Assembly: GCA_964187785.1 (NCBI GenBank)
Contig: OZ076409.1
Coordinates: 53,136,001 to 53,200,000, forward strand
Direction: 5' to 3'
DNA length: 64,000 nucleotides
DNA from: Amphiscolops sp. MND2022
Taxonomy: Eukaryota
The position numbers and the translations under genes were made by a program. This document shows, piece after piece, positions 16,773 to 53,527 of the stretch (positions are counted from its first letter, which is position 1; every line of letters begins with the position of its first letter). Below the pieces are notes generated by a model, which was not told the origin of the DNA, did not search any database, and saw only the letters and a list, made by a program, of their open reading frames with translations.

Positions 16773-17207
16773 GTTTTCCCACCTGTTTTTACGTACCTGC
16801 TAGGTGGGCCATCTTAATTTTGCACATAATCGCACATTTTTTGAATTACAACGAAATTTTGTTTCGCTGGTGCCGGACGTTACATATTATCACAAACCGG
16901 AAACTTCTATCGAGGAGGGCGGAAAATATATGGCTTTTTTGTTTAAATAAACATAAATGGCCTAAACATATATGTTCGTATTTCAATTGCGTGCTTCCAA
17001 TCGGCTGTAAATGTATTACATTGTATAGGTAAGATTATGGATCCTGGTGTTTGAATGAAAGCTTCAACATTTCGTCTATACTAAAAAACATGGTTATACA
17101 TTTTGTGGCAAACAGTTTTCCTAAGAATGATCTGTATATGAACATCTGAAAAGCTGACGTTTCATAGGTTTTCTTCCATCGAATCTCTATGATGTTTTCA
17201 GAGAGCT

Positions 17208-22700: not shown

Positions 22701-22818
22701 ATAGTGAAGCACGATTTTTAACTGAACGAATAACATATCAATTTCATTTTTAATTGTTTGCATCATCAAACTATATTTCCATAGTGTTTTCATTGTATTT
22801 TCATCATATACATTATAT

Positions 22819-23089
22819 TGTACTGACCTACATTAATAACCAATAGTATTTAGATGTTTACAGAATGTTCTAGAATGTACATTTATTTATTATTGAATGA
22901 CTGTAAATCTCTACTCGCTCAGAGAGAGAAAACTAATAATCAGTATTCGGTTGATTTCCTTTTTGTTCTACTTCTAACACCTCGAACTAGTTGTAATAAA
23001 GTTAGCTAGCTAGCCTGTCTCTTAGCCGCTTTTTACTAAGTTGTTAACACCATCACCACCAAAAGTAACCAACTATAAAAAGCAGCACA
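22819..23089 (+). repeat. Element A 5' LTR (271 bp)
   Basis: TGTACTGACC...GCAGCACA; AATAAA at 22995; direct repeat of 41048-41320. Confidence 0.95.
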
Positions 23090-23092
23090 ATT

Positions 23093-23104
23093 TGGTGCGA
23101 CTTG
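23093..23104 (+). promoter_or_regulatory. Element A primer-binding site (tRNA not assigned)
   Basis: TGGTGCGACTTG begins 3 nt after the LTR end. Confidence 0.75.
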
Positions 23105-23328
23105 TAAAATTTCTTGCCTTTTCTCCTGGATGATTTCTCTTCTCTCAACAATCATACAAATACCACTCTCCATCTTTGAAATTCTCTGGAATTGCAGTGA
23201 AATCTTTCTAGAATTTCTTGAAAATTTTGGTCTGTGACTTTCTGAATTTCATCAAAAAATACATCATTGTTCGAAATACAATTTCTCCACTACAACAATC
23301 AACTCAAATATAACGAATTTTCTTCACT

Positions 23329-23610
23329 ACCGGTTTATCACGTTTCCTAACACATTGACACGGTTCTTCTTCCTGCTCTTCTTGCCATACCGGTTTATCA
23401 CGTTTTCCAATACGTTGAAACGGTTTCATTTCAGACTGATTTATCCATTGTGACACAGTTCTCTTTCTCTTCTCTTTCCAGACTGATTTATCCAAAAGTG
23501 ACACAGTTCTGTTCTCTATACTGATTTATCACAGCTAATCCGGAAGCTTGTTGAAACAGTTCGTTGATGTTTGTCTGGTTTATCAATGTTTTCTAACACC
23601 TTTGACACAG
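23329..23610 (+). repeat. Six-unit stem-loop array in the element A leader
   Basis: Units CYG-RTTTAT(C)-CA...TG-AMA-CRG at 23329, 23389, 23435, 23482, 23520 and 23575. Confidence 0.75.
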
Positions 23611-24982
23611 CAACTTTCTTCAATCCTGCTATCTTGAACGTCAGGTGGACTCCTGGTGTAATAGTTGACTGAGTGCATGTCCAGCTCCGCTCACCTATAA
23701 GCACATACGTCTCAAGATCAACTTCGTGTTGGCAGAAAACCTGGATTTTCTACCTTTACGTTTCGGATCCATTTTCTACGAAAAATTCCTGCAAAATAGT
23801 TTTCAGAAATAGACTCTGAATACAAAAAAGGCAACCAAGAGTGTCTACAAAAAACAACCACGCACTATTCCATTTCTTTTCCTATTGTCGACAAACAATA
23901 CAAATAATTTCACAAAACTTAAACAATACAAGTAACTTCAAAACTTAAACAACACAAGAAAAATAACAACACAATCTACACTCAACCTTAAAACTAGTAC
24001 TTTCACCGGTAATAATTTTAACATAATCCTACAAAACAATTATTTTAACAAAATACCACATACAAATCTCACAACTCTTTTGCTCTAAAACCTAAAATAA
24101 GGCATGTAAATAACACAAACACTGTAAAGTTAGTTTTCTACTTTCAGGCTCCCACAATTCCTATCCCCTCCCGTAAGACTTAGACAATCAGACAGCCTCA
24201 CCAGCTTACTCTGATTCTAAGACTGACTAACAACCTTAGTTAAGTGTAAACGTCTTTAAGGAGAATCGAGAGGACACCGAACTACGTTCGAATCTTCAAA
24301 ATTCTCAGAAAGTAAAAATAAAAGTAAAAGAAACAAAGATCAAACTTTGATCTTGATCAGTATTGATCAGACTTTGGATAGTGGACGTTGATTGTTCAGA
24401 GTTCCACTCCCTTAGTCTTAAAACACACAACCCACTTAAAATTAAAACAACCTTAGTTTTTCTGGACGTGTCAGTAACCTTATGTTAGACACTTTAAAGT
24501 GATCCAGACTTAAAATCACATTTAGTTTCTATTAGCAATCCTTTGAGGTTGAATACAGATCCTAGTGCATCCGCTTCTTTCTTCTCTATCGAAAACTACT
24601 AACTTCCCAAATAACTTCAAATTCTTGTTAGAGCACAAATTATATGAACTCTAACATATACAATCAAGCGATTTATCCTTTCATTTATTACATTCCGCCA
24701 ATTAGCTCCCTTCAAAACACTACATCAAACGATTTTGAAAGATTAATTGAACGATATCAACAATATTTTTTCTTTATCATAAATCAACAAAGACATTACC
24801 CAAGAGCTCCAACTTAGAGAATCTCTATAAAAAATTACTTCAAACGTTTCAATCTTCACATTATAACATGTGGGAAAAAGTTACCACAGTAGTACTCATT
24901 ACAACATACACGTTTTGTGTCTTATTTATAGTTTGTGTTCTCCTTGAACAAATACTTACAGTGATAAGAGACAAACTTTAAA

Positions 24983-27900
24983 ATGAACTCCTCAACAACA
25001 ACCATTCTACCTTTTCAAACTCCCGTCAATAAAAATGCAAAAGTTGTAAAATTAGAACTAAACCCATTCCTACAAAACATTATTTCACATTATACACAAC
25101 CACTCCCATTTGAGAATGAACCTCATACAATTGAAACAATCCCTCTTATTAGAGAACATTTGGACACATTCCTCTTCTATATTAGATACAAAGTTTTAAC
25201 TATCACCGCAGAATACCCAGCTTTTCAAATCTCTTTTCCTCAACAAAGACCTAATTCATCTCAAATATACAGAAGAACAATAAACCCAATAAATCTCCAA
25301 GTTCCTATTAAACAAGTTTTTCTCGGTTTTTTAAACAATGTGAAAGACCACAACCTAGCACATGAAATTCCAAAATTTAGTCCAAATGCACTCGACGACC
25401 TCGAACGATATATAAACAATTTCGACGTAGAAATTATTGAAAGATTAGTTAATCCTGAAGACAATCCTCATCATTGGTTACAAACTGATATACTACGAAT
25501 TCAAAATTTCCTCTACCATTATTTCAAAGACTTAACATTAAATGACCAAACAATTCCTCAGATCAAAGTAATATCTCTATTCCTCAGAAAATACTTCAGA
25601 TTTAATTATCAACTATTATGGTCACAACAAGATCAATCTGCTTTTACAGCATTCCCAAAACATTTTACAGTCGACGAATGTTTACCATTCATCATCAGTG
25701 AACAAAATGAACATCCTTATTTTCATAAACCACAATTAATTACAAAACAAACTTTAGATTACATACGTTTTGATCCTCTATTAATTACAGAAAATGATCT
25801 ATTTGCAGACAATAGACCTTATCACTATGAACAAAATTCTCAAGTTCAGCAAAACTTACATTTTAACACTAACAATTATACTGAAGATGATAATACCAAT
25901 CATGAAAAAACACTCCAACAACAAAATCAAAAAGAAAACTATAACGATAATGAGTTTACTACCCAAGAATCTACAATTTCAACACATAATCCATCACAAG
26001 CAGGTACATCAACATCAGTACACACTCAATCCTTTAGAGTTCCCACTAGAGTTGTAAATCAGAGACAAAATACACATAGTCCTCAATCTCATTTAGATAC
26101 ATCTCCAAACTGTAATATAACTTTCAACCTTCCATATACAGATGAAAAAACACACGACGAAACCCATGACACTTTACATGATGATATTCTGACTACATCT
26201 AGTGCTCAGAATACTTCTGTTAATGTTGCATCTCCAACAAGAACTATTCCTGATTTTACAAGATACATTACTCGACCTAGATATGATCCTCCATCAATTC
26301 CCTCTGCTTTCCGCTCAAATAGATCGATTTCTTCAAACAACAATTGTAATGATAATCCTCAAACTTCCAATCAATTTTACGATCCATTTAATTATAACTT
26401 TTATCCTCCATCAAATACAACTACCAATACAAATATCAACCAAAATCACTCTCAAATTAATACAACTTCAACAACACAGAACCCTTTCATACAATTATCA
26501 CATACCACTGCTTCACAGAATATATATTCTCAAAATCAAGGAACTTCGTATCCTTCCACTTCTTATTCTCATATCACACAAGCTTCTCAAAGGAGACTTC
26601 AAAACCCTCCACTTACACATATACCAACTGATCCTTTGTATCAAATGCATCCAAATCCAAATCCTAATCCTAATCCAAATCCATTACCACAAAATGCAAT
26701 TCAACATATACCTCCTCAACTCACACAACAATTAGCTCCTCCACTCCAATATTTACCAATGCCACAAGATGCCTTTATGAACATGTCCGCTTCAATACCA
26801 GAACCTATGAAACGTTTTGATGGTTTAGACCATTCTTATACCCCAGAAGAATATCTACAACAAGTCGAAGCTAGATTAACCTTCGCCAAAGGTGAAGAAC
26901 CTCAGAATAATCCTATAAAATACAAATCTTGGCATAACAGACGCATGGCTTACATACAATGTTCATTAACAGGAACAGCTCTCAATTGGTATACTAACCT
27001 TCATATATCATATAAACAACAATGGAATTCCTTTGTACAACTATTCAAAAAACAATTTTCATCTCAAAAACAGCATACTACGCCCAAGTAGAAGCTATGT
27101 CACTCATGAAAAAAGATAATGAAACAGTACGCCACTTCGCCCTTAGAGTACAACAATTAGTTAAAAAGGGATGGTGTAATGAAAATGCAGCTACCATAAA
27201 CCTCAAAAATAATGAAATCTTTACAAAAGGAATACCCAAGAAGTTAAAAGATTTTGCCTATAAACGACAAGTTAAACATGTATCAACACTATTTGAACCT
27301 TCAATATCATTTCACACACTTGTTAGACATGTCGATTCTGAAGACATTGCTATTGAAAAAATTAGAACTAACGACTTAGCTCTAGAAATAAACAAAGTAT
27401 CGCTTGAAGATGATACTAGCAAAAAGGAATTTGAACATGAAAATCAAATAATGGTTACTCAATCTGGAGACTCAAATAACAAAAGCAAACCAGCTTATAA
27501 AAGATATTGTTCCTATTGTCACAAAAATAATCATAGTATTTCAAATTGTTATCAAAAACAACGTGATGATCAATACCAAAAATACAATAACCAAAGATCA
27601 CGAACTCCTCAACAAACTTTTGTACAATATTTTTGCAGTAAACCTCAACGAGAAAACCGAAATGACAATACAAATCCTTTCTCCTCAGATAATGATCGTA
27701 ACAAATATAATCAAAATTACTATAATGATAGATACAGAAATAATGATAGATATCGTAGCAATAGTAAAGAATATTCGCAACACAACTATCGATCAAATTC
27801 TCGACAAAGATATTACAATCGATCTCGAAGCCCATATAGATCTCGATTCGATAATTATTATCAAAGACGAACTCCATCTAGATCTCCATATAGATCTCCA

Positions 27901-30900
27901 CATAGAAATAACTCAAATTACAGATATAACTCTCGCTCAAGATACAGATCTCGTTCCCAATCACAAGGAAACTCCTTTAAATGATATAATTATCCATATA
28001 GATCTCCATCAAGACCTAGAGATTTTAAATCACGATCTAGAACACCCTCACGAAACAGACAACAAAACATAATAAATCAAGTAGACGTTAAACCTACAAA
28101 AGACAATGATAGTACAAAATTTGAGATCCATACTTGTCAAACAACAGAAATAGCTAATACAATCACTCCTTATAGTTGGTTTTATCCACTATATATTCAT
28201 GCTTCTGAAACAAATGATAACATATTACCTTCAAAATTAGAAACCTTATTCCTCTTAGATACTGGAGCATCCATATCTGTTTTGAATTTACCAACATTTC
28301 ATGTAATTTCCAAACAATTAAACATCAATGTTCCAACCAATCTTCAAAACAAAAGAGCCAAAACTCTTACAGTTGCAAACCAAACTGAAGTACTAATAAT
28401 ACACTATATTTCGATGACCTGTTTCACTGAAGTAAATCATCAAACGCGATCCTTTAATATCGATTTCGCCGTAGCCAATATCAAATACAACATTCTTGGG
28501 ACACCCTTTTTCAAAAAACACATCCAAAACATCGATTTTCAACAAAATATTATGACTTACATAGAACAACATCCAAAGCTTTCAACAAAAACAACATTTT
28601 CCACGTTTACAGAAAAGGAATACCCATATATTTCTTACATCTATACTATTAAATGTAAAGAACCAATTCACTTTAAACCAAGGTCAGGAAAAACTATACA
28701 TTTCCCAATTAAAAACTATTCAAATCTACATTTTGAACTTGAAGATAATACAAAATTCTATCCAACAAACCCATATACATACTTCTTACAAAAAGTTAAA
28801 GATATCTTTCATTTCTTAGATATGATAGTCAATGAAAAAAGCAAAGACTCTTGTGCAACCATAATTCAAAACTTTACATCTTACCCAGCCACATTACCAC
28901 GAGGAATCATTGGATACATAGAGATACCTATTACTCAAACAACTCCTCCTCACTACAGAGTTAATGATGTAAATTCACTTATTCACTCTGTAATACATGC
29001 GTATCATCCTGATACCACAACTCCGATTAAACAAAATCCATATGCAGATATGAACTTATGTACTAGGGTAACACCACAATCCCTATTAGAAATTAACAAA
29101 ATAGAAATCAACGACAAAACACTTCAACTTTCTATACCTTCTGTTACTGGAAACCTTCGACCCTCAGATAAAATTCGAAAAGATTTTCCTCCATTACCAT
29201 ATTCTACAGAAAACCAATAAATCATAAAAAAGTTTAACTTTGAATACTCAGATCTAACTGATACAGAATATGTAAACCTCTGCAATACTTTGATTGATAA
29301 TCAAAATTGTTACGCCAAACATAAGAATGACGTAGGAAAATTTTCTAATCCCTTTCGAATTAGAATAAAAGATAATTGTAAACTTCAAACACAAAGACCT
29401 TCTAAAGTACCAATTCATTATAGAGATAGACTAAATAAACTTTTACTAGAACTCGAAAAATCCAATATAATAAAACAAATTGGTTCAACATCAGATGAAA
29501 AAAACACAATTGGAACAACATTTTTAAACCCTTTAATTATTATCGCAAAAGGATACGCAATAAAAATTGTTTTAGACGCAAGACATCTAAACTCAAACAC
29601 CAACCAAGAACTTGAATCTTGGCCTATTGAACCTTTAGCTCCTCAATTAGCTAGAGCCAATAAAAAAAATAAATCAACTATTGATATAATGTATGCATAT
29701 GCTCATACACCATTAGACGAAGAAACGATCAAACTTACAGGATTTTCATCCGGTGACAAACTATACGCCTTTATCCGTGGATTTTATGGATTAAAGGGAC
29801 TTCCAAACTTTTTAACAAAACAAATGTCAACTTTCTTTAGATCACTTATAGACAAACGTTCTGCGTTGGTTTATATCGATGATATTTTATTACTCGCAAA
29901 TGAAAAACAAGAAATGTTCGAACTCATAAAAGAATTACATACAATAGCATCTCGAGAAAATCTCAAACTTGCACCCGAAAATCATTCTACATGTTACTCA
30001 AAGTAAAATTCCTTGGACATGAAATTGGTAACAACACAATCAAACCAATTCCATCCAAAATCGAAGCCATTAAAAGAATTCCATCACCAAAAGAAAAGAA
30101 AGATGTTATGCAATTTCTTGGCAGTGTTAACTTTTATTCAAAATTCATTGAAAAACTTCATATAAACCTTAAACCATTGTATACATTACTACATGATGAT
30201 GTTAAATTTCAATGGACACCTGAATTAGAAAAAATATTTCAAAATGTTAAAAATGCAATGACAGCAGACATTGAATTAACAACACCCAATACAACGCATC
30301 CATTTTTCATAACAGTAGATGCTTCGTTAGTAGGTTTAGGCGCAGTCTTATTCCAAATGAACGAAGAAAATAAAATGAAAGTAATCTCTTATAACTCCAG
30401 AATTCTTAACACACAAGAACAAAAACTTTCAACTTTAGATAGAGAACTTCTCGCTATAGTTTACGCATTACAAATATATGAATTTTTGATTATTGGATCT
30501 CCTCATCCCATATACATCTTCACAGATCACAAACCTTTACTACATTGTTTCGCAAAGAAAAGAAATCTTAGTCCTAGATTCTATAGAGCACAAATGCAAC
30601 TAACCAAATTCTCCAAACTAAAAATCATTCATACCCCTGGAAAAAACTTAACTGTAGCAGATATGCTTTCACGAACTTTTACAAAAGAACAATTACAAGT
30701 ACACCAATTACGACACAAACAATTACCACCTCAAATAGATTTCTCTATCATGAAAGATAATCAACTCAAACCAGTACATTATTTAGTAAAACATGAAGAA
30801 ATCAAATATAACCAAAAGAATGATTGTCATCCTATCCTTGCTGACTACGGAGACGACCAATTCTCTATCCGTATAAACAACAAAGGAGAAGATATCCACA

Positions 30901-32967
30901 TAAAACCTTTAGATTCCTTCTCTTTTCAATCTATTGTTCCATTTGAATCAAAATATAAAAAGCCTACAAAAAACCAAGCAAAATCTCTCTTACAACAATC
31001 AACAATCCTTAATGATACTGATATTCTCAGCGATGACGATGAACTAACTCAATCAAATAACATCCAACATCAAAACTCAGACATATTACATGAACACACA
31101 CTTGCTATACAATATCCTACCAAATCCGATTATTGTAAACAACAAGTTCCATTTTTTGATCCATCTTTTTTCAAATACAAAAGATATTTCAATTATTTCT
31201 TCCTACCAGAAGATACACAAATAACCATTGAAACAATAAAAACTCAACAAAAACAAGACACTGTTTTACAAAAAGTTTACCAATGGATACTTAATAATGA
31301 AAGACCCTTACAAATAGACCCAACAATTGCAGCTAATTCTTTCTTATTAGTATATTACAAAATTTTCAACCAATTAAATATTAACCATGATACAAAAATT
31401 ATCCACATAGATTATCATAATCTTCACGATTCCAATCCGAATCAAAGAGACAAAATATGTCTACCATTTAAACTCTTCCACGCAGCTTTTAACAAACTTC
31501 ATGCTCACGGACACTCAGGAATAAAAATATCCATCAAAGCTTTTAACCAATTTTACTTCATACCATATTTGAATAAATATCCTCAAATTAGAATTTCAAT
31601 TTCAATAAAAATTTGAATATTCATCCATGATTGTATTGAATGTCAACAATTTAAACATATTAACTAAAAAATACAAACTGCATCCATACAAACATTCTCA
31701 GAAAATGCTTCATTTTTTAATTACCGAATATCAATGGATACAAAAGGACCTATAAACCCACCATCAAATCAAAATTTATACATTCATGTTATAGTAGACG
31801 CTTTTAGTCACTTTGTAGTAACAGTACCTATAAAGCAAAATAATGCTCAAAACGCTGTTAACTCATTACTACATTATTGGATAACAAAATTTGGACCTCC
31901 TGTATATCTAGTTACCGACCGTGGAACAGAATACATTAATTCCGAATTTGCAAACCTTTGTACCACAATGAGAATTAGACATTCACCAAGAACTCCTTAT
32001 GCACCATGGACTAATGGGACTAATGGTCTAGTTGAAAATCAAAACAGAAATCTTGGAACTCATCTCAGACTTTTCTTACATAACACTCCAGAAAACTGGT
32101 CTACTCAAGTTCATATGTATGCTTATGCACATAATTCACAACCACTTTCTGAAATGAACTTATCTCCATATGAAATAGTATTTCATACTCTACCCAGAAT
32201 TCCAATCAATTTTGAACTCAATCTCCAAAGAGATACATATAGAAATTGTACTTCCCAATGTTGTCAAGAATTACCACTTCATACACACCATGACAAATCA
32301 AATCTAAACCCCTTCTTCCATAAAATTTTATCTAAACCGATCCCACAATGGATCTTAGCCACTGAAACTGCTATGATACAAATATACCACACAGTATATG
32401 AAAACACAAAAAGAAAAATTAATTCTTGACGCTTATTTAACGTCTTATTATTGACGTTATTTATTAATTATTAACAAAATTTTCGACATAACATATGAAA
32501 TTGTTAATCAAGATGGTTATACATCTCACATACACAGAAATCATTTAATTCCTTACTATCCAAAAGAACCAATTATTTTTCCTTTCTTACAACAGTATAA
32601 TCCTCATTTATTCAATGATATTCATTCGAATATAAACGATCAATTAATTAACTCCGATGAAAACCTATTTGGTGACGAAGATCAATTTTCTTCCACAACA
32701 TCTAATAAAGAAACGGATATACCATCCACAATCGACTTCCAACCAGAATCATTTAGCCAATATTCTTCATTTCCGTACCAACAAAAGGAACGAACTCCTC
32801 AAAATACCAACTCAGATAAACAATCAGATATTTATGACTATGATAATTTTATTAACCCCCGAAGACACTCCTATAATAGATACATTTTCCGCCCACAACA
32901 AAGAAAAGACTATCGACTTTTCCTTGGTGAAAACGATATAATTTCACTTTCTCAAAAATCCTGCTGA
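24983..32967 (+). pseudogene. Element A gag-pol polyprotein (disrupted)
   Basis: Capsid-like FDGLDHSYTPEEYL..W; zinc knuckle CSYCHKNNHSISNC; RS-rich tract; protease LDTGAS (~28255); RT YIDD; RNase H VDASLVGLGAVL / TDHKPL / ADMLSR; integrase HAHGHSG..CIEC, MDTKG, TDRGTE, NGLVE. Multiple stops, frameshifts and indels. Confidence 0.93.
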
Positions 32968-33136
32968 AATACAGAATACAGAAAGAAATACACAAAGAAA
33001 ATTTGAAAGAAAAAGAGAAAGTTTGAAGCTTAATGTGAAACTGAATGAAAAATATTTCACAAGTGATAATGAAAGACACAAATCCTAATTGATAAAAAAT
33101 TATAACTACTTTACAAATTAAATCAAACTACCATAA

Positions 33137-34606
33137 CACAAAGATTTCAAAATTGATAGACATATTCACTCACCATCATCAACCACAAATAACTCATCTT
33201 CTAGTTCAACACATTCACTCCAAAGACTACCTGAATATACAGCATATTTAAACTCAGATACAGACATACTGGATTCCTCATCCTAAAATCCCAGTCCATC
33301 CGCTCCATATACTCCTGATAGAGTACCAACAACACCCACCAATACACCTATAACCCAAACTCAAACACTAGTAATAACAACTCAATCACAACCTATTTCA
33401 AGAAATCGAACATTTGTAGAAACAAATTCACCACTTTCTGACTCTAATGATGAAACACTTACAACACCAAATACACAAGATACTTCAAAGATTTTACATA
33501 GACCTCCTCTTCCACCAATTACTACCACTCGTTCCGTTCATATCCCTGATCCCAGCTCAGTTCTACAATACATAAATTCTTGTCCATATAAAGTACCAAC
33601 CGCAACGAAAACAAAAAGAAAAACTCCTTTACCTACATTACCACAAGACCTTAATTTACCATCATCAAGTCATACTCCAATAACATTCTTACCAGAACCT
33701 TCATTGAAATCATCAGTGAAGAAATCACAACAACACCCAATTCCTTCACCATCTGAACTAAGTTCATTCACATTTTCTCAAATATATCCCAAACTTTAAT
33801 TAGAACGTGTACATTCAACCACTACCTCTTCTTTAACAGATTTTAATCATAAAGATAAAGATTCTGACTCAACTGCTAGTACTAGAGTACCAAGACATAA
33901 TTATAACCTTCGATCTCAACAACAAAGAAAATTTCTAAAATTACAATCTTTAACTAGTTCAAGTACAAACTCAAGACTACTTAGACAGCACGCCCAACCC
34001 AGAGTAGACACTTCTTCTCTTTCCTCATCTCAACCCACTATACCATCTTCTTTATCACTACCATTTCAAATCACATCAGGATTTGAAACAGCTTCTCTTC
34101 TTTCTGAAGACCCAGTAACTATATCAGATAGCGCAGCTAATTTTTCACGAGTTTACTCACCTAGTTCAATAGCATCAAACTCTTCTATACAATTACCTGA
34201 ATATTTTTTAGAAGATTTCTCAAGACCTCCAACACCAAACCCTCACGAATATCCCATCCGTGTTAATTCAACAATTGTTCGTACGCTTAACGAAGATCCT
34301 CGATACACGGTTTTACCTGCAAGATTTATAAACAATAGTTCACTCTCAACTCAAAGAAAACAAAGAGAATTACGAAGATTACAAGAACAACAACTCGCAT
34401 TAAAATTTGAAGTAGAAGTCACATTCAACTCGTTAGGACCTCATCCATTCTCTCTTTCAACAAGAGTAGCACACAAAACAACCCCATCACCATTCATAGT
34501 CACATCCATTTCTCACCTTTGTGACGCAGAATTACCTGAGATTAGAACAGGACATATAAACTTTTTTAATCCCTACTCCGGACTTAATTATAGAACAATA
34601 TTTTAA
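33137..34606 (+). pseudogene. Element A ORF X: Pro/Ser/Thr-rich accessory frame between pol and env
   Basis: One frame of ~490 codons with only two internal stops (33284, 33797); 33800-34606 is 268 sense codons. Missing from the ORF track because it has no suitable start codon. Confidence 0.7.
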
Positions 34607-34639
34607 CTATAGAACAATATTTTAACTGATGTTTTAACC

Positions 34640-37296
34640 ATGAACCAAATCACCTTTACCCTATACTTAATATACATAATACAAGTTGTTAAATACACGT
34701 ATATAATACATATATTTCACTCTTTAGTTCACCCTTCAACTGTTCCTAAAGTTGACACAACCAATTCCGAAAATCATATTTCAGACCTAGACCCTAACAT
34801 TTTAAACTTGATGGTATCCCATTATGATTGTGCAAAACAAAACAATTTAAGACAATTCAGTTTATTAAATGTCGAACCATGTAAACAAGCACCCTCAGAT
34901 ATACAACACACAAAAACCCAAGCAACAGTTTATGTTAGAGCAAAGGCCAAAAGAATAAAAGCCTTTAAATGCGAAGCATATATAAAGACTGAAAAGGTCT
35001 GGTGTTCACAAACATTCACATCTAGTAGACGATATGATCGTTTACAATGGGGACAAAACACATTAGAACTTCCAAAAATATTGGACCCTATTGAATGCAA
35101 AAACTTGATAGAATATTTAAACGCGACTGATAGCGAAGAACTAAACAATTACAATATACAAAGCTCTTTCTCATTGTTCGACGATAGTAACTATCAAAAC
35201 ACAATTGAACGAATTCAAACACTATTTAGAGTAAAAAAAAATTAAATACATGGCATATTGGAACCTTCGTATTCGATGAAAATTATCCCGACTGGATAGT
35301 TAATGTTACACAAAATACATACTCTAGATGTCGATCAGACCGAGAACATTTAATTACCCGACAAAGTTGGAAACTTAGATTTGTTAACACCGCAATAGAT
35401 TATGACGATGAAAACATTCAATTAATACATGACGGACACATATTACCATGCTATCATTCAGACGGATTTTGTAAACCAACGACAAAAACTCCATATACAA
35501 TAACATGGTTTGATGAAAAATTTTGCCTCTTATTTCAACTTCAAGAATTCATTGGTAGAATGACACGAATCACAGACAGACATTGGATAGAAACCGATAC
35601 CTTCATTGAAACTTCAAACATCACACAAAAACTTCAAACCGAAGGAATACAAGGAACAAGATATCCTAATGTGAAAACACCACAATCAAAAATAAGCAAT
35701 CCAAGCCTTTCTCGATATGAAATATACCCAATTGCACAAACCTTCTGTGGAAAACCTGAACCATTATTCTCAACACAATATGATCACATCTTTGTTACAT
35801 ACTTAGATGGTTTTGATATGAACACAGGACTACCAAAACCACACTCAATAATTGACCAAACAATTAGTGGAAACATAAAATATGATGACTCAAATAAAAG
35901 GAATATTTCCCTGCATTGAATATATCAAACAATTTCACCACTTTAGATTATGATGCCCACATTAATACAAAAATTGATTTCACAACAAATCATGTATTTA
36001 AATCCATGACAGTACAAGAACTAAACACCTTTCATACAATATGTGAACTGGAAAGAACTCAATTGTTAACGATCTTAGCTATGTCAGTTAAAAATCCTCA
36101 ATTAGCCGGTTTTCTTTTAACTGGAAATCGAAGTAACTTTCTCTACGTTGAAGGATCTACAGCATGGCTGTATGATTGCCCTCATTTTATATCACCACTA
36201 TACAAGGCAGATAAATGCTTTGATAGAATTCCCATACACTACAGAGAAACGATAATGTATGTTGATCCTATAACAAGACAAACTTTTAACTATGCAACAC
36301 CAATTGAATGTGGAAATAACCCACAAAATATAATCGAATTAGACCCAGACTCTAACGACGGAGATTTTTATGTGTTAACACCAGAACCACTCAAATGAGA
36401 AGCACCACAAATGTTTAAACCTACCCAAATTAAAACAACAATCACTCCTAATACATTTACCGCCCAAGATGCCGGTATATACTCAAAAATGCAGAATTAG
36501 ATCAATTCTGGAATAGAGTATTAGTCGCTAAACATTCAGACACAACCCTTCAATTACTTGGAAAATCATTAGGCTATGATTTCATCACAGTGCATAATGA
36601 TAAACATTCCTACTCAGGACATAATCCTTATAATCATTTAAGGATTGGAGTACATGACCACTTGTTAAACCTCTTACCACTTTTCAACCCTGACTGGTTC
36701 AGTCAAGCATTCATTAATTTCTTTGGATATTCATGTTATGTTTTAACACAATGTGGAATTTATTTTTCAACATTTCTTTTCATAAGAGAAGTTTTAATAT
36801 TTTTACTCAGTCATAGTTAGTCATAGTTTAGTCATAGTTTAGTCATAGTTAGTCATAGTTAGTCATAGTTTTAACATTTTTACTCAAATTCTACAGAACA
36901 ATTAGCATAAAATACAATCTCCAAAGCAACATTTCCATTTTGAGTTCAATAGCCCATGGATTTTTTAATATAGTTACATCGGAAATGGTAACCGATTTAA
37001 ACAATACAGATAAACGAAAACGGATATATACTAAACACAAAATTACAACAAGTGAAAATGATAATATCGTATTGCCGGAAAAAGAATTAAACAATAAACG
37101 AAGATACTCTGATAATGTCTCCCCTTATTTACCTCCTAAATATTCCAGTAGGAGTTCAACATTTCAATCACCGCAAAAGACACACCCAACTAATGTCAAC
37201 GATATTAATTCTCAGGACTATGACCCAATATTATCAAATGTAATAGCTGTACCGGGAAGTCCTGCTAAAGTCTTTATTAAATTTAAGACCTCCTAG
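34640..37296 (+). pseudogene. env: Element A env: class III (chuvirus G / herpes gB-like) fusion glycoprotein, disrupted
   Basis: Hydrophobic N-terminus; HYDC..FSLLNVEPC; ICELERTQLLTILAMS..P..AG; LYDC..KCFDRIPI..YVDPITR..TPIEC; C-terminal TM-like segment. Lesions near 35240, 35900, 36396, 36485 and a 77-bp insertion at 36809-36885. Confidence 0.85.
36809..36885. repeat. (AGTCATAGTT)x6 insertion with a 19-bp flanking duplication inside env
   Basis: AGTTTTAAYATTTTTACTC occurs at 36790 and 36867; removing 77 bp restores the frame (..IFLL-KFYRTISIKY..). Confidence 0.85.
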
Positions 37297-37737
37297 CTAA
37301 AAAGCAATAACCAAATAAACAAATTAACCTCAGAAAAAGTTCAAAAAATTATCAACAAAATTCTTCTCAGTTTAACTTTCATTCAAACCCAAATTCTCAC
37401 TCGGACCAGTCTCTCCTTTTCAACTCAACTAAAAATTCACTTGCCTATCACAACTCAGCTCTCAACCAGAAGACTTCAAATGGATTTTCAATCCATCTAA
37501 AAGACCGAAATTACAGAAGTTTCTATTCCTGGAATAGATGCCACTGTGATTGTTGATGTTTTCAACCCACCATTCACTCAGTTATTCGCATATTGTAAGT
37601 ACAATTTAAACTTCTATTTTAACAAACAATTTAATGGATAGAAAAGACATAACGAAATTTTTCCTTATTATTAGAAACAGTATAATCAAACGTTATAATC
37701 ATTATTTTAGCTCTACAAAAACACGCAAGTTTAAATA

Positions 37738-39030
37738 ATGGAATCCTTGCCCGAAATTGATGTAGTTAATTCTAACCAATCTGAATTGCTTGCATCCCCT
37801 TTGAATATAACTATTCAACAAAATGTTAACGAAGATAATAGCTCCTCTTCAAACTTTCAAGATCCCATAGAAACTATTCCTATTGAACAAGTAGATCATG
37901 TTAACGCAAGATCTCAAAAAAGAAAGTACCCAGATATAACTGCAGACAAACCTTTTATGGAATCTGGCGCTTGCCCTCCTTCCATAAAACCAATTAAACA
38001 AGATGAAGATTGAGATTGTGAATTAGTTCCTATTCTCTCATCAAAACAATTTACCTTTCAATCTCAGTTAACCTCGTTATACATGATTCCAACAAAATAC
38101 AAATTCATCATCAGAGAATTTAAAAATGATTATCATACTTCAATCGCTTCAAAATTGATCACCCCATATGATTGGTGGTTAAACAATAAAGTGAAAATTT
38201 TCTCACTCCAATACAACTTCCTCAGACCATCTCCATATGATCTTCGAAGCGAAGAAAATGATGCAAATTTTTTGCCATACCAAATCAAAAAAGCTCAGCA
38301 CATGACTTATCAGAAGTTTCTTCAATATAAAGAGCCCGATAATTAAATATTCTTCAACTCCAAATATACATCGCCATTCACTTTCAACTCAGAATATCTA
38401 ATAGATGATACCAAAACAAAAGGAAAACTTAGAAATTATGACCCGCTTAAACAAAGTTTTCTTTTCCTTCCAAATGATAACCCAAAAAGACCAATCATTG
38501 TACCACAAGAATACCTCATTCTGAACGACGATTCGTTATTACAAGAAGATATACCTCAAAATATATCTGATCCTCTTCCTCCACTTCAACATATAGCCTC
38601 TCAACCTTTGGGAGACTGTGAAAATTCTTATTTTTACGCAATGACCAAAAAGGGATATTCAAATAATGAATTAATTTTCATTATTTCTCACCTGCTTTCA
38701 CTTCTTACAAATGGAAATCATAAAGAACACAAAAAGACAAAACAAGAATCGCCGAAGAAAACCAAAAATGACATTCCTCAACCACAAAGTTTTCGCCCAA
38801 CGGACGAATTACAGAAATATACAGAAATTCTGAACATCATAAAACCCTATCATCATCCAAACCGAGATATTCTTATAACAATCGCCGAAATCGTAAATAC
38901 TCTTGAACAAACTCGAAGCATAATACAAAATATCGTATTTGATACGACAAGAATTAGCCAATCAGCTTTGTGTATTCGCACATCTTTAGACGAATTCAAC
39001 TACACAATTGAAAAAATGCACCGATCTTAA
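37738..39030 (+). pseudogene. Element A accessory ORF4 (~430 codons, unknown function)
   Basis: Track ORFs at 37738, 38083 and 38608 share one frame broken by only two stops (38011, 38344). Confidence 0.75.
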
Positions 39031-39436
39031 CTGGTAATTATGGGATAATCACTTTAAATTGTTAACACTTAATACTTAATCTCTTAACAACCAGTCAAAA
39101 TTAATTGAGTCTACACGCATATGCCTGCTATGCATGATTATAGTACATGCTTGATATTGAAATACTCCTTTAAAATAAAATAATATAAAAAATTTCAATC
39201 ACGACATAAAAATTTTTAACAAAATTCCTCAATTGCTCCTCCTTTTAATGGACCGATTTCAACAAATAAGTACTTATATGAAAGATATTTAAATACCCTT
39301 CAAAAGACTTCCAAAAAACATTAACTTAATTCTTAAAATTTAAAAGTTATAACATCACAAATTACATCAAAAAAATGTCAACTACGAAATTCTATTTTCG
39401 AAGGAACTTTATTGTAAACAAACTAATCTTTTTTAG

Positions 39437-40030
39437 GTGAATATCGTCACAACTGCTTCTTCAGCATTCCTTCCTCCTCTCAAGCCGTCCATTCAAAAAG
39501 AATTCCAACGTATCTTCTACAACTTTCAACGAATTTCTTCATATTCTTCAATATGACGACTATTCATTCTGGTGACACAGACTGCCCGATAGCTCCTCTT
39601 CTTTCAATTCCTTCAGCTCGATTGCGATCCTTTCATTCTGAAAAAGTATTTAACAACATTAAATGCGCAGCTCAAAACAGATAAAAAGGCAGACCCTCAT
39701 CTTACAAGAATGATATTGCTCAATATGTTCCAAATATTCCAAATTACACGAAAAAACTTTGACCAATATCTTCACATTCATAAACATCCTGATACATATT
39801 CAGCTCAACGAGACGCCACTACCCAAACAGAGCATACTACTATCAAGCCCAAAAATTTAGTACGAAGTCTATCCAACAGAATGCGTTCTGAAATGGAAAA
39901 ACAACGTCTAAATTCCTATTGGCCTTCAGACAATAACGACGATACCGATGAAGAACTTCAAAAAGACCCTCCAGAAGCACTTCTAGATGATAATTACCCA
40001 TACAAAACGTATACTTACGTCTCTTTCTAA
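39437..40030 (+). pseudogene. Element A accessory ORF5 (~197 codons, unknown function)
   Basis: The frame of the 39710 ORF extends back, with two stops, to a CTAAT...TTTTTTAG acceptor-like site at 39423-39436. Confidence 0.55.
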
Positions 40031-41032
40031 TATCAACAGATGACATCAACACACTCATCCGATGACAACCCATCTTCAAATCCAACATCCACAACGATTG
40101 ATCGTCACAGCTCAGCACCCGTTCTTCACAACTTCATCGCCGCCCAACAGCTGACCCATCTTCATCCATCTTCCAATCTTCACTCTTCAGCCATTGAATT
40201 CTCAGCCAAAGATGATTGATAATCAATAATGAAGAAAACTCAAAGAAAAAACATTGTGCATGATAATATTTAAAAAAGCTTCAATTTCATACCGAAAACA
40301 TTCACAATGTATTTATTATTTCAAATTTCATCCCCACCCATGTTTATTTGCCCTTAAAATCCTTTAATTCACACCCGTACCGATATTTATTTGCTTTTTT
40401 TAAAAGAATAATTAATAGTTATTATTTTTCGGTGCTATCCTATCCAAAAATAACGTATGTTAACAACAAATCTTTTCAAATTTCAACAAAACAAGTTCAA
40501 AATAGAGCAAGCACATTGTTCAAATCATATTCGAATAATTACAGACCCAAATTCTCAAAGTTTTTAACATTTGTTACATAACAAACCCGCCAAAGTTGAT
40601 CACAACCTGATATCTTTTCAGACAGTTTTCACACTCGATGAAAAAATTTTATCAACAATAATTTTTCAATGAATCTTTGACCTTTAACTCGTATGATGTT
40701 TGCTCACGTTTGGCCAATGCGAAGTTCATTCAAAGACTTCAACAGAGGCAAAAAAATTGAGCATCTACCAGTTCAAAAAACAAGCCGACGAAAGCATAGT
40801 GAAAAAGAACACTTTGACGCTTTTTGAACTGTAGTCGCACCTACGAGGTGTCAATCAAAATTTTGACAATTCGAGGTACACCAATGAGTCGAACTTACAC
40901 CACTCTTAAAGAGACTTATGCCAATCATCCATCAAAAGAAAAACGTTAACTAGCTGAAACGCTAAGAACCTTTAAACAACATTTTTTTCTCCATTTTAAT
41001 TAATGATGCTACTTTAAAATTTTATTTTATTT

Positions 41033-41047
41033 AAAAACCGGGAAGGA
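41033..41047 (+). promoter_or_regulatory. Element A polypurine tract
   Basis: AAAAACCGGGAAGGA immediately precedes the 3' LTR. Confidence 0.75.
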
Positions 41048-41320
41048 TGTACTGACCTACATTAATAACCAATAGTATTTAGATGTTTATAGAATGAATG
41101 TTCTAGAATGTACACTTATTTATTATTGAATGACTGTAAATCTCTACTCCCTCAGAGAGAGAAAACTCATAATCAGTATTCGGTTGACTTCCTTTTTGTT
41201 CTACTTCTAACACCTCGAACTAGTTGTAATAAAGTTAGCTAGCTAGCCTGTCTCTTAGCCGCTTTTAGTAGTTGTGAATATTACTACCGAAAGAAATAAC
41301 CAACCCTTAAAAGCAGCACA
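41048..41320 (+). repeat. Element A 3' LTR (273 bp)
   Basis: TGTACTGACC...GCAGCACA followed by ATAT. Confidence 0.95.
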
Positions 41321-41605
41321 ATATTCGCGAAAATCAGTGCGTTTGATCAGTTTTGACCAAGTGTTGACATGAACCAAAGCAGTCACTCATTAACCTCGAT
41401 ACAGTGCGGACGTTGTGTTAGCGATAATATTTCCTTTGGGACCATAGAATCAACTTTACGTAGTAGCCTCGTAGATAGAGCGCTTTGATCAATTTGTAAA
41501 TAAGTGTGTCGTTACAACGTCGCTGATAGAAATGCAGCGCATTGCTTACTATGTTAGGTTCAATTTATGCATAGGGGAGGCGCTTTCAACTAATTCTTCA
41601 TATAG

Positions 41606-45072: not shown

Positions 45073-48000
45073 ATGGACTCTTTCCAAGGAAGCTCACCGC
45101 GAAAATTCATCTCCTTCTGTTTAGAAAATCCAACAGATGAAAGTTACCAGCCACCAGACCCAGCCTTCATTCAAGTTCCTAACAAAACTAGCAGTGTGGA
45201 CCCAGAGTTGCAAAAACAACCTAGCCAGCAAATTTCTTCAAAGGAGTACGGTAGTGATGAAGATGTTAATGCGTATGCCGACAACATCGTACGCTTGAAA
45301 GAGGGATCAACTATTTCAGGAACAGGGCGGAGAGTTGACTCGGAAGAGCAACCCAGGCGAGTCACTGCACCTGTGACTGATGGATTAGATGAAGTAAGCC
45401 GGATCCGGACAAGTACCCCAGTTCCCATTAGCCAGGTGAGAGAGTAACTGCCACAGCGGAAACCAGTTTCCCAGAATTGGTCCCCATTTCAATGCTTCTT
45501 GTTGGGGAACGTTCTGAAACCCACCTCTCTGCCAGTGAGGATAACACATCTTCCATTTATGAAGTTCCAGCGTTGCCTGGACTACCAGCCCAGACAGAAC
45601 CCCCGACAGAAATGAGCTGAGAAGACTGAGGACGAAATCAGTAGATTGGGTTATCAACATACCCAAAATGTCACCTTTGGTGACACAAAGTCAGGGACAG
45701 AAGGAGGAGACGAATCTGGCCCCAGCACCAGGACTATCCGCCAAGCAGAACCAGGACCTTCCGGTCAGACAGTAAACATGCCTGTTCATGAGTTATCAGG
45801 GAGGAGTAGGGCAGTGCTCAAACAACTATTTGTTGAAACTCCTCCTTTCTCGCTGCCAGTTGGGCACTCGACTGTTGCGTTTAGCGAACCGGAGCTTCAT
45901 CACTTACTCAAGACTCTTACTAATGAGACGCTTAGTCAATCATTCACCACTATGGTTTTGGAAGCAGTGAAGGGCGCCCCTGCGACAGCACAATCGCGGA
46001 CCGATCACTTCCGATCCCGGCATCGGGCACAAAATCCGCACCCACACATGGACAGTGATACCAGTGAGGGAGGGATAGAGAGTGACTCGTGTTCTGAACC
46101 CCTTGCTCCAGGATCTTCTAGTACTTTAGCTAGTGGGGACTCGACAACAAGTTACGAAGAATCAGATAGTGCTGCAGAAACGGCTTTAATAGACGAATCA
46201 TGTCAAAGGTCCACTGCAGGAACTGCTGGGAAGCCCCCCATAGTTACAAGCACTCAAGCCAACCCGCTGAAACAGTAACCTCCAGTGAGATGAGCTGTCC
46301 CGAAGAGACACTGTCAGCAACCCGGGAAGCAGCAATTGAAGAGAAGACCAACGTTGTTCCCCAGTCCAAGAAGACTAAGAAAAAACCGAAGACCATACAA
46401 CGAGGAGTCCCGATGAGAGAGGAATTTTTCTCTGAAATCGGATGGACGCGTTCCTTCATTTCTGTTCCTGCTGACCCGCTGCACAATCCTTGCATGGTGT
46501 GGTGCCACATTTGTAAAAAGAATATTTCCATCAAAACTAAAGGCACTTTCGAAATTTTACGGCACCACAGAACAGAGAAGCATCTTAGGCGCGATCAAGG
46601 GTGGAGGTACGAGCACTTGCACAGCATTGACCCCATCAGTGGAAAAGTTCAGCATAGGGAAAGAGGCCGGAATGGAAAAGTGCTGTCATTGATTGAACTG
46701 GTCAAAGAACTGCCAAAGTTTATCCACGCTGAGCTAGTGCACAAAGGGGAGCGTTTTCCCTCCTACGAAGATTTCCCTACAAAAAGTTGTGCCGAGTCTT
46801 CGCGTGCCGCAGTAGTCTCCCGTCCTCTCAATTTACTGGAGAACTTGGATCTCTGTCTCGGTTCCTCTTCGTGGTTTCCACCATAGCTGACATCGTGGCG
46901 TGTTCCCGGTGTTCAGTGGACTTTGTGCGCACCCTAGAAGTGCAGCTATTTCCCCAGAGGGTTTCAAAGTTGTTCCCGCTTTGAACATTTATCGCTGTTC
47001 TCCCTGATGCACAAAGGAAGTTACAGCGTATTCGGAATGATTGACTTCTTTTCGGTGCTGCAAGCCCTTCTAGTCTCCCTGGGTGGGTCTCAAGTAGAGG
47101 ACTGGATCCTAGAATATCCGGAACTCCATCGAGTTAGTGCTGAACTCATTGTAATTCATGGGTCCAAAACAATAAAGTGGCTACTTTAATCATGATATTC
47201 CTTCTTTAGGCGATTACCTCATGCCAGTTGGACCTGAGGGCTTGCCAGCATTGTCCACTGAACTGATCAACCTGTGGAAGAATGTGCGAACTTACTTGAC
47301 CGTCCACTCGCCCGGGGAAGAAGGTCAAGGAGTAAGAAGTAGAGTAAGTTTTTTGTCCGTGTTGTCCTTCTGTTTTTTTGACTCAAAAGTGTTTTTAACC
47401 TGCATAACCCAGTAGTCTTCCGATGAATATGGACAGGATTTTCCTTATTTAACTCGTGCTGTTACAGGTGCAGAGCTTTGAGTGGTCACTTATTAGTGAT
47501 GAGTTTATTACCGTCAAGATTGAGTTCTTTCAACGTCTTGTCAGTGACTGTTAGTATTTTCTTGTAGATTCTGGTTCACTTTTGCCTGTTTCGGACGTTT
47601 TCCTTTGTGTTTGCAGATTTATCCAGTTTCGTAATTAACCTTCAACAACGGCGCGATGCGTCTTTCTATCTGTTTGGTGAAGTTAGCCAGTCTGTCTATT
47701 GTCTTTGTTGCCCTGCTTCACTCCAGACACTGTGCCTTTGGAGAACTCTTGGTTCCTCCTCGTGGAGTTCAAGACAGCAGAGGGTAAGTTCAAGGAAGTA
47801 AACGATTTTCTAATTCGGCCAAAGCTTGTTTCAAAAGTTGCTGCGGCCAGCAAAATCAAAGCCGAGGGACTTTTAGTTGGCAAAAAACCTGACAAGGCAA
47901 CGGTCCAGAAGACCATCACTGAGGTAAGAAACGACTTTGTCCAAGAGGCACTCCGTTTTATCAAGTACCTGCTAGATGGGGTCCTACATCAATCAGAATC

Positions 48001-48786
48001 GAACTCTCACCTGGTCCAGGTTTTGGCAGCTTTCAATTCTCACATCTTATTCAGACGACCAGTTAACGTTGCCTTGCGACATTTTGAGTTACTGTACAAT
48101 ACTTTTCTTTTGCGGAAATGGGTCACGAGCGCTGATGAGTCTTCCTATCGCGAAGAGTACCTTGGCCTACTTGATCATCTGCAGATTACTTATCCGGCTG
48201 ACTTCAATTCCACTGATCTGTCTGCTGACCTAATCGAGTTCCTCATGGGGGTTGACTTTCTTGGCACTAAGCCACGACTTCTCCACCTCTTTAAATTGTG
48301 TTGCCTATGATTTACAGCCCGTAGTGAAGAATTTCGCTCTGTTACTTTTGGTTATATTGACCTTATAGGTCCCCAGGGAAGATTTGCCAACTCCCCCCCC
48401 CCGACGTCGTGTTGCCGGGACGAAGTTATTTGTCTGGAATTCTCGATTCAATCCTGTTCTGCAGTCAGGATTCAAATCTGTCAAAGTTCTCTCTGCTCGC
48501 ATCTAATTTTGGGAGGTCAGCATTTGCCCCTACATATGATCCTTGGGATTATGTGGATACGTTTGGACGTTCCAAAATCTATAAAGCTTTATTGTCATCC
48601 TATATGGTAGCGGTTGCAGGCCCTCATAGAAACGTCGTTAGTTTGGACCCTAGGGAAATTTCTCCAGTCCTGGAACAGTCTGCCTTGCAAATTCCGAGTA
48701 GCACAAAGAGAAGGCGAATGGGCAGTACAAAGTCTCGGTCATCCAGTTCATCTGTCGTCAGTGTTCCTACCGCCCTTAACTTCTAA
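45073..48786 (+). pseudogene. Antisense BED-finger / hAT-transposase-derived gene inside element B (probably spliced, disrupted)
   Basis: Disordered S/T/E-rich N-terminus; GWT..VWCHICKKNISIKTKGTFEILRHHRTEKH (C-x2-C-x16-H-x5-H); helical C-terminal region RNDFVQEALRFIKYLL..LVQVLAAFN..PRLLHLFKLCCL; splice-like sites (TTCTTTAG 47209, GTAAGT 47344, TTTGCAG 47617). Confidence 0.7.
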
Positions 48787-49074
48787 GGACTAACGTGTAC
48801 ATATGTATTTATGTACACTAGACAGTATACTCTGTTTTATTCTGTGTTGTATTTATCCATAGTTGCCAATTTTGTTGCTATTTGTATTAATTGATGGTGA
48901 TTTGTTTCTGTTTCGTTGCTATACCCCTGCATATATTCTGTCCGTAGGGGTTTTTCGACCGTTCTTTTATTTGTTCAATGAAAATACTGTCTGCCATGGG
49001 ACTAGAAATGGAAAAAAAGATAGAAGAAAAGAAAGGCAAAATAACGCTCGTTTCTGGGCGAAATTCATTTCTGT

Positions 49075-52000: not shown

Positions 52001-53527
52001 TGAGACGATCAGCGTCGTTGGATGCGATGCCGATATCGTCCACAAACTGGGCACACTGATCTGCTTTAATTACTTTATCAAGGTATTCTCGCAGAAAGCT
52101 CGAGAATGCGGATAGCGCCCGGCTAAGGCTTTGTACCAATCGTCTGTAGGCAAATGTGCGGCTCCCAAAATTGAAGGCTAACATTTCACTTGATCGCTGG
52201 TCCGCCATCTGGAGGCAATGGTACGACTGTGAACAGTGTAATTTGCAAAAGAGTTTTTGCCCACCATGTATTGGGCGGCATCAACTAGGGTACTGACGGG
52301 GTGATTATTGTTTATACGATCGTCCGAAATTAGATTGTTGATTTTTCTCAAGTCAACCAGGAGTCGCAGTTTCCCATTTGGCTTGTTTTGCGCAAATATC
52401 GGGCTGGCGTTTTTGGAAAAAGGCAATGATTATTTCATATTTATGTAGCATTGCTAGTTCAACTAGGATGTCTTCCTTTAAGTTTATTGGCGCTGGGAGG
52501 CTCTGGCTATAGGCTGGGGAATCGTCCTTGGGCGTCAGTTTTACCTTAATTTCCTCGTTCATGTCTACGTCAAATCGGTGTCTCGCAAAAATGTCGTGAA
52601 ATTCCACTAGTAATTCTTCGATTTTCTGTTTTTCATCAAGAGTAAGGGTGGAATCCTTCCAATTGAAGTTTTCTACGAATTTTGTTCTGGATTCCTCATC
52701 TTTTGTAGGATCAAGGGTCTCCAGGTCCTGTAAGGCCTGCAATTCTCGTATGATTCTTTTTTGTATCGGCGTATGTTCGTCTGGGTTTCCTGGGTTTTCC
52801 GGGGATGGAAACCAATAATTTTCCGAGTTTTGGGGCTTTTGTTGGTCTTGATGAGGCTACTGAGATAATGGGCTGCCTGCACTTGGTCGTTTTGTAAGAG
52901 GTGCCAGGTCGATACCGGATCAACCGGTTTGACGTATTTCATTTGTTCTGGCGTCATAACAGTGAAGCTAGCAATATGGAGTCCTTTTTTGAGTTTATAG
53001 GGATGATCCGTGAACTTATTCACAGGTATCGATATATTGCCATCGTTCAGAGTGACCAAGGCTGGGCAAAAGGTAATGTCACCTTCTTCGTGTAGAAGGT
53101 CAGTTGGTTGAAGTATGCCAGTGACCGCATTTTTGAGATAAAGTAGGGAGCTTGTCCTAATTAGGACTCTGTCGTTCGGTGGAATGGTTATTTCAGTAGG
53201 ATTGAGTATTGGCTTCAAGACATTGGAGTATTGGTGATCAGCTCTTTTGAGCAGCGTTGAAAAGAACGGATAGTTCAAGATCCCCCTGTTTCATGTCCAG
53301 AACTGTATGGTTTTCCTGAAGGAATATTAACCCTATGATTGGTCCCGTCAAATGCTCCATTACTATGAATATTTCGTGAAACTCGATGTCACCAACCGCA
53401 AATTTAAGCTCGATTGTACTTTTAGGAGTCTCTAATTGTCCATTTGCAAAAATGATTTGAAAATTCGGAGGCGGACCTTCCCGGGTAACATATTGTGGAG
53501 AAAGAATTCGAATTTTCTGGAGGTCGA
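49075..53527 (-). pseudogene. pol: Element B pol (heavily disrupted)
   Basis: LRLLVDLRKIN, RRLVQSL, QFVDDIGIA (RT); TDASF (RNase H); HG..KHPG..CEQC (IN zinc domain); WVGPF; C-terminal NLRPNPTPNYSEDFRY. Confidence 0.92.

Follow-up and report, generated by a model that had tools for sequence, protein, structure and literature searches.

We analysed 64,000 nt of the genome of the acoel Amphiscolops sp. MND2022 (contig OZ076409.1, forward strand, positions 53,136,001 to 53,200,000), a stretch that we call the window and to whose full length all window coordinates refer. It contains an 18,502-nt long terminal repeat (LTR) element on the + strand (22819-41320), which encloses a broken envelope gene (env, 34640-37296, +) predicted to encode a class III fusogen of the chuvirus G or herpes gB type. 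The element is marked by a strong C-over-G skew in the composition of the window. Repeat detection (repeats D3, D9 and D10) delimited a 5' LTR of 271 nt (22819-23089, +), repeated as a 3' LTR of 273 nt (41048-41320, +); both have the form TG...CA. The target-site duplication ATAT, which has no strand, precedes the element at 22815-22818 and recurs after the 3' LTR at 41321-41324, and 4-bp target duplications also flank other copies of the family. The primer-binding site TGGTGCGAC (23093-23101, +) lies immediately 3' of the 5' LTR, and the polypurine tract GGGAAGGA (41040-41047, +) immediately 5' of the 3' LTR. Between them, an AUG-poor leader of 1.9 kb (23102-24982, +; 8 AUG seen, about 19 expected) leads into gag-pol (24983-32967, +), which carries several stops and frameshifts in this copy. 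There follow open reading frame (ORF) 2 (33269-34606, +), env, ORF4 (37738-39030, +) and ORF5 (39427-40030, +). The same layout recurs in four subfamilies (A, B, C and D) with a total length of 17.7-18.7 kb. Set against an unbroken natural copy, none of the coding frames here is intact, and the copy in the window is therefore a dead relic. An initial annotation, made from the sequence alone, had described a Ty3/gypsy provirus; the Ty3/gypsy element is there, while its full 18.5-kb extent, its copy number and its accessory frames had been missed.

The two LTRs align with 249 identities, 20 mismatches and 6 gap columns. The differences are clustered, with 17 of the 26 columns in the last 60 nt (23030-23089 versus 41260-41320) and the first 210 nt near-identical. 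Together with the intact target duplication, this pattern suggests that subfamily variants exchanged sequence through template switching or gene conversion. The nine bases of the primer site are identical in subfamilies A-D and in both distant env lineages described below; the motif is missing from the primer table in the available part of a recent survey (PMC13524379), and a tRNA match was not found.

The envelope gene and its predicted fold

Unbroken natural copies of env encode 856-858 aa. The window copy is 91-96% identical to such a copy and has exactly five interruptions, the number that the initial annotation had counted. Three are frameshifts (near 35237, 35907 and 36480-36494), one is a stop (36396), and the last, at about 36797-36867, combines a frameshift with a short tandem-repeat insertion. 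The cysteine motifs, the transmembrane (TM)-like segment and the tail reported by that annotation all lie in + strand frames where it had placed them. SHYDC and SLLNVEPC are in frame 34613-35245, CELERTQLLTILAMSVKNP and YDCPHF..DKCFDRIP..YVDPITRQT..ATPIEC are in frame 35898-36398, the hydrophobic segment is in frame 36452-36820, and the tail extends as far as the stop codon at 37296. Hydrophobicity of the TM segment is only moderate (best Kyte-Doolittle mean over 19 residues 1.59), and the N-terminal signal-like stretch reaches 1.45. A second natural Env of 858 aa has a signal-like N-terminus, 15 cysteines and five sequons before a TM segment near residue 704; the furin-type motif R-x-[KR]-R was not found in it.

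Several comparisons point to the same class of fusion protein. PF24664 (Monjiviricetes_fusion) was matched by two of the five window env fragments (E 7.6e-6 and 6.9e-14), and a natural unbroken Env (P0001, 856 aa) scored 88.5 bits against a cut-off of 27. In the Atlas, env stood at 0.94 to PF24664 clusters. A structural model of the ectodomain, built on a 96-row alignment, had a predicted local distance difference test (pLDDT) score of 77, with long beta-hairpins and a 45-residue central helix. When viral structures were searched with this model, the best matches were glycoproteins of chuviruses and xinmoviruses (E 5e-26 to 1e-21, 12-15% identity), and herpes gB appeared from rank 43. Against solved structures, all 34 Foldseek matches listed were herpesvirus gB, in line with the gB-like fold that had been proposed. 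The top nine matches of an independent structure aligner included gB of herpes simplex virus 1, domain IV of pseudorabies virus gB (root-mean-square deviation 3.5 over 157 of 175), cytomegalovirus gB and rhabdovirus G, with thogotovirus proteins ranking lower. No match was obtained when the PDB was searched by sequence with env or an env profile. Whole-chain TM-scores of the model are low (0.2-0.45), perhaps because the monomer is flexible and has several domains. Since PF24664, the structure matches and the Atlas agree, the predicted class III type is well supported, and the initial annotation was right to set it apart from the baculovirus-F type. We rejected the insect errantivirus type (gypsy, ZAM and Idefix, with a class I baculovirus F-like Env) on the grounds that only class III matches were obtained and that R-x-[KR]-R is lacking.

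Backbone, relatives and abundance of the family

In a natural unbroken copy, gag-pol is a single frame of 2653 aa. Its gag part consists of an uncharacterised N-terminal domain, capsid, a CX2CX4HX4C knuckle and an RS-rich stretch. The pol part follows with protease (DTG), reverse transcriptase (RT; GFYGL and YIDD), RNase H, a bridge of about 290 aa and integrase with a GPF motif. Pfam matches above cut-off were Retrotrans_gag, RVT_1, RT_RNaseH, RT_RNaseH_2, Integrase_H2C2 and rve, and those below it SH3_Tf2-1 and Integrase_p58_C; the protease has no Pfam match and was identified by its DTG motif alone. No Pao family was among these 8 matches, while PF05380, of the Pao-type pol, gave 150 scored matches elsewhere in the same genome. 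The nearest solved RT structure is that of Ty3. These results bear out the Gypsy-type pol of the initial annotation, and the element has the features of Ty3/gypsy (Metaviridae): TG..CA LTRs, a 4-bp target duplication within the 4-6 bp of that group, a primer site and polypurine tract, protease-RT-RNase H-integrase order, Ty3-type RNase H, a GPY/F motif and the CX2CX4HX4C knuckle.

An RT tree of 13 rows separated four BEL/Pao RTs from all env-bearing rows at 100/100, so the grouping with BEL/Pao that would have contradicted the initial annotation was not seen. The rows were only in-genome copies and the metagenome contig L118; the long branch of the window row, which reads past a frameshift, is an artefact, and one env lineage (far719) and four of eight BEL loci had no row. 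We rejected a BEL/Pao backbone (Belpaoviridae, including Anakin) based on this split and the lack of a Pao family. Identity with Troyka, described in the available part of PMC12440569 as having CG..CG ends, a 3-bp duplication, a CX2CX8-10HX4C knuckle and neither GPY/F nor env, was rejected because end bases, duplication length and knuckle differ. Odin, a lokiretrovirus, carries a dual RNase H, namely a tether plus a new RNase H (PMC9040795). In our element, RNase H matches the Ty3 type only, with acidic catalytic-like residues present, and the 290-aa bridge has no Pfam match. We are close to certain of the identity of the element and the class of its predicted envelope.

Two observations concern gag. 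Its N-terminus is a domain of about 270 aa (L028:203-1000; about 24983-25780 in the window) that is similar across subfamilies and has no Pfam match. In addition, 27452-28072 (+) is stop-free in another frame too, for about 200 codons, across the RS-rich stretch of gag. This second frame is also present in A, as both of its groups A1 and A2, and in B, C and D, and may either be an overlapping gene or result from the use of Arg/Ser codons.

The family is abundant. A search of the 1.07-Gb assembly with one env fragment returned at least 7068 candidates. The best 150, which were scored, were all 96-100% identical, and about 58 of them (hand count) lay in open frames of at least 863 aa; these counts are lower bounds and biased toward the best matches. 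Protein clusters of the env family had 1585, 1758, 603 and 424 members, corresponding to subfamilies A, B, D and C, and subfamilies B, C and D are each present in the Amphiscolops genome with top copies 98-100% identical. LTR pairs were 96-100% identical in six A1 copies and 99.4-100% in eight others, from which it follows that the family moved recently. At the level of sequence, the family is thus highly amplified and young. Some copies are nested (L040-L042 and L056-L058 loci): an A-type copy has a C copy inserted in its gag, and another decayed relative contains a B copy. The COX1 gene on contig C1929 of the assembly has Symsagittifera roscoffensis (75%) and Baltalimania ylvae (73%) as its nearest named relatives, with other animals at 62-67%; this one gene points to an acoel host. 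In another acoel genome, Gypsy elements make up 28%, and the word "envelope" is absent from the main text of that report as available (PMC6451197).

The origin of the envelope can be approached through its relatives. A search of cluster representatives with env returned 2097 proteins at E<=0.001, some of them full-length relatives with 26-35% identity. Ten metagenome loci were taken for the genomic context of distant relatives and seven were read; only L118 was long enough for gag and pol, and it holds a gag-pol-env element with a full-length env relative and two further ORFs. The unusual RT motif GFYGL is common to our element, to a distant acoel lineage (far821) and to L118; among 120 matches listed, RT homologues were all 68-98% identical, that is, close relatives, none of them named. 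The Amphiscolops genome itself contains two more gB-type env lineages with their own LTR elements (L059-L064) that keep the primer site, one of 12.2 kb with 505-nt LTRs and the other of 17.9 kb with 1.58-kb LTRs. The 17.9-kb lineage also has a 193-codon Met-free frame 3' of env. In a quick env tree of 29 rows, all of them non-viral, subfamilies A-D and one outside protein formed a clade at 100, and far821, far719 and L118 a separate clade at 99. Inside the A-D clade, the env relative P0046 has no close copy in the Amphiscolops genome (best match 62-65%), and the clade is therefore probably present in one or more further hosts. A post-env protein family is common to far821 and L118 (L140:802-2316 and L118:9741-12092; 28-29% identity, coiled-coil C-termini) and is duplicated in L118. 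Homology of ORF4 to these proteins was rejected (HHalign probability 0.6%).

The initial annotation had proposed an independent envelope capture that founded a new lineage. An acoel Ty3/gypsy element could have acquired a chuvirus-like glycoprotein in this way, given that the fold and profile of env are nearer to chuvirus and xinmovirus G than to herpes gB and that the branch leading to the A-D clade is long (1.39, support 100). Yet identity to viral G is only 12-15%, full-length env-like relatives at 26-35% are numerous, the L118 relative sits on a gag-pol-env element with the same GFYGL motif, and the Amphiscolops genome carries two further env lineages. Furthermore, Chary and Hayashi report gB-type env on Ty3/gypsy elements across many animal phyla, recovered partly with a chuvirus-like BEL/Pao glycoprotein as bait, and argue for an ancient origin (PMC13524379, available part). 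The combination of Ty3/gypsy and gB-type env is, by that account, already described. With a related env on a related pol elsewhere (far821 and L118) and such a broad published distribution, a recent independent capture is unlikely, and the proposal of a new lineage is not supported. Sequence relationships make it most likely that the envelope was inherited from an old env-bearing Ty3/gypsy clade.

Accessory frames and a candidate CUG start

Three extra frames accompany gag-pol and env. ORF2 is AUG-less and likely CUG-initiated (CTG at 33269-33271), rich in Ser, Thr and Pro, and has a conserved C-terminal domain of about 130 aa; the window copy has two premature stops, at 33284 and 33797. ORF4, AUG-started and of about 435 aa, has a conserved core and a helical C-terminus, with two stops in the window copy. 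ORF5 is short (about 160-200 codons), kept within subfamily A and not alignable across subfamilies. Between A1 and A2, the ratio of nonsynonymous to synonymous substitution (dN/dS) was 0.11-0.12 for ORF2, 0.10 for ORF4 and 0.09 for ORF5 (115 codons), as low as for env (0.09) and gag-pol (0.11), and ORF2 mismatches fell 37/18/99 by codon position. Across A-D, where synonymous sites are near saturation, ORF2 and ORF4 align at about 30-48% identity (ORF4 31-40%). As read from these substitution patterns, the three frames are under purifying selection. None of the three could be assigned to a known family. Neither ORF2 nor ORF4 has a Pfam match over cut-off or a meaningful PDB profile match, and the ORF4 core has no Atlas match. 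A model of the ORF2 C-terminal domain from 5 sequences (pLDDT 45.6) was too poor for structure search. ORF2 was not seen in far821, far719 or L118.

Several features suggest how ORF2 may be translated. It has no Met over 437, 410, 444 and 414 codons in A2, B, C and D. The first in-frame CTG reads ATA CTG GAT in A1, A2 and the window (33269) and ATC CTG GAT in B and C. Subfamily D, examined afterwards as a test, has AAT CTG GAT, so that A-n-n-CTG-GAT stands at the start of ORF2 in all five groups examined. An A at -3 and a G at +4 provide a favourable initiation context. The site was intact in 38/38 A stretches, 12/12 C, 6/6 D and 6/6 B, counts that include four stretches duplicating a locus and young copies that are not independent of one another. 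CTG makes up 1.2-3.1% of Leu codons in pol and env, and other Leu residues common to subfamilies keep the same codon in only 35/128 pairs. In addition, codon shuffles gave an expectation of 7.3, 6.9, 6.3, 7.6 and 8.0 out-of-frame AUGs within ORF2, against 1, 2, 3, 1 and 4 observed (P 0.003, 0.02, 0.09, 0.001 and 0.06), with the counts for B and D including the env AUG. The out-of-frame AUGs that precede env in A1, A2, B and C start short ORFs (1-16 codons), and a comparable deficit was not found in env or pol. A conserved frameshift from ORF2 into env was rejected, as the frame offset is -1 in A2 and +1 in B and C.

We consider it probable from these patterns that ORF2 initiates at CUG. Three points count against this reading: a hairpin 3' of the CUG was looked for and not found, low-complexity regions are Met-poor anyway, and in subfamily A the frame 5' of the CTG is open and unusually conserved. 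Alternatively, ORF2 could be spliced onto an upstream AUG exon with env on its own RNA, in which case the CTG would act as a cis motif or encode a Leu-Asp under constraint. Env expression in errantiviruses and in Tor3a usually goes through splicing (PMC4402516, available part), pyrimidine-rich YAG sites occur 10-20 codons 3' of the CUG, and ATCCTGGAT in B and C is near-palindromic. However, B and D have an in-frame stop 8 and 6 codons 5' of the CTG with no intervening AG, the downstream YAG sites are out of phase between A and B, and similarity of ORF2 across subfamilies starts at the CTG. Splicing would also leave the loss of out-of-frame AUGs before env unexplained, and we regard it as rather improbable.

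Taken together, the window appears to hold the broken env of an amplified acoel Ty3/gypsy element in which env and a CUG-started ORF2 would be expressed from a subgenomic RNA by leaky scanning, an explanation that we hold a shade less firmly than the CUG start itself. Full-length RNA would give Gag-Pol and, as for Ty3/gypsy elements generally, would serve as the template for reverse transcription and integration. A second RNA, made by splicing or transcribed from an internal promoter like that of Oikopleura Tor, would start near the end of pol and carry ORF2 and env. A minority of ribosomes would initiate at the CUG to make ORF2, and the remaining ones would pass over one to three short ORFs 5' of env and initiate at the env AUG, comparable to the leaky scanning of rice tungro bacilliform virus. 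Env would then carry particles between cells, most likely from soma to germ line. Such cell-to-cell spread is fairly likely in light of the sequence, though we are marginally less assured of it than of the explanation as a whole. Env might instead be retained for interference or particle assembly, for example, together with the accessory frames, by an element that amplifies within germ cells. A very high copy number is easier to reach intracellularly, and env has no furin-type site. This possibility is very unlikely, given that Env keeps a signal-like N-terminus, conserved cysteines, sequons and a TM segment, with a dN/dS of 0.09-0.2 across four subfamilies.

Known systems and other features of the window

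The element most resembles the gB-type "ancient errantiviruses" as characterised in the available part of PMC13524379. It shares with them gag, pol and env in that order between LTRs, a Ty3/gypsy pol, a multicopy state with multiple young copies, and a predicted gB/chuvirus-like class III ectodomain between signal peptide and TM segment; a furin site is not required. It differs in its length of about 18 kb, its single gag-pol frame, its accessory frames and its host, a member of Xenacoelomorpha. The coding gap between pol and env is 1.3-1.7 kb, whereas the non-insect search in that survey allowed 1000 nt. The words "accessory" and "non-AUG" are absent from its main text as available, Xenacoelomorpha is missing from its genome list, and acoel terms were not found in 7 supplements.

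Other systems share single traits, as far as the available parts of their descriptions go. Anakin, a chuvirus-glycoprotein BEL/Pao element of mosquitoes (PMC7642597; mentioned in PMC12440569 and PMC13524379), has a Monjiviricetes/chuvirus-like G on an LTR retrotransposon, but its backbone is BEL/Pao rather than Ty3/gypsy. Tor3b and Tor4b of Oikopleura (PMC4402516) are likewise env-bearing LTR elements of a marine invertebrate; their subgenomic env RNA comes from an internal promoter and starts in pol or in the pol-env gap, and unlike in the acoel element no upstream non-AUG gene is described. Rice tungro bacilliform virus (PMC5902531) has a non-AUG first ORF, then about 900 nt free of AUG, and leaky scanning. 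This likeness is an analogy of mechanism only, the virus being a plant pararetrovirus with an AUU start on pregenomic RNA and neither envelope nor integrase.

What is new here is the acoel host phylum, the size, the accessory genes and the probable translation strategy. In the open-access literature, to which our search was confined (subscription papers and Repbase lay outside it), we found neither an acoel env-bearing element of this kind nor a report of a CUG-started gene in Metaviridae. Our findings add Xenacoelomorpha, a bilaterian phylum that branched early, to the known range of gB-type env retrotransposons, which bears on the claimed pre-Cambrian origin of such elements. They also point to retrovirus-like genome complexity in a Ty3/gypsy element, with accessory genes selected as strongly as env and a signature of CUG initiation and leaky scanning. 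Tentatively, and with less than even confidence, we propose that acoels harbour an active invertebrate counterpart of the complex retroviruses. It would be a Ty3/gypsy virus of 18 kb, equipped with a gB-class envelope and three accessory genes, with CUG-tuned Env on a bicistronic subgenomic RNA and cell-to-cell spread, present in thousands of copies in a one-gigabase genome. Env expression and cell entry of gB-type elements are stated to be unknown in the available part of PMC13524379, and so abundant a family in a small marine worm makes both testable in host RNA and tissues.

Elsewhere in the window, decayed Ty3/gypsy elements with the RT motif RRLAQGL and no env seen occupy 49600-53620 (-) and 55700-63300 (+), with exact internal duplications (57070-57369 = 60129-60428; 59624-59923 = 60732-61031). 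The stretch 8000-16800 has several short repeats (50-95 nt), direct and inverted and interspersed, which are possibly remnants of miniature transposons. Finally, ORF fragments at 45600-48800 (+) include a zinc-finger-like CHIC...H..H motif (46170-46886), which we take to be of BED type, and are possibly the remnant of a DNA transposon.
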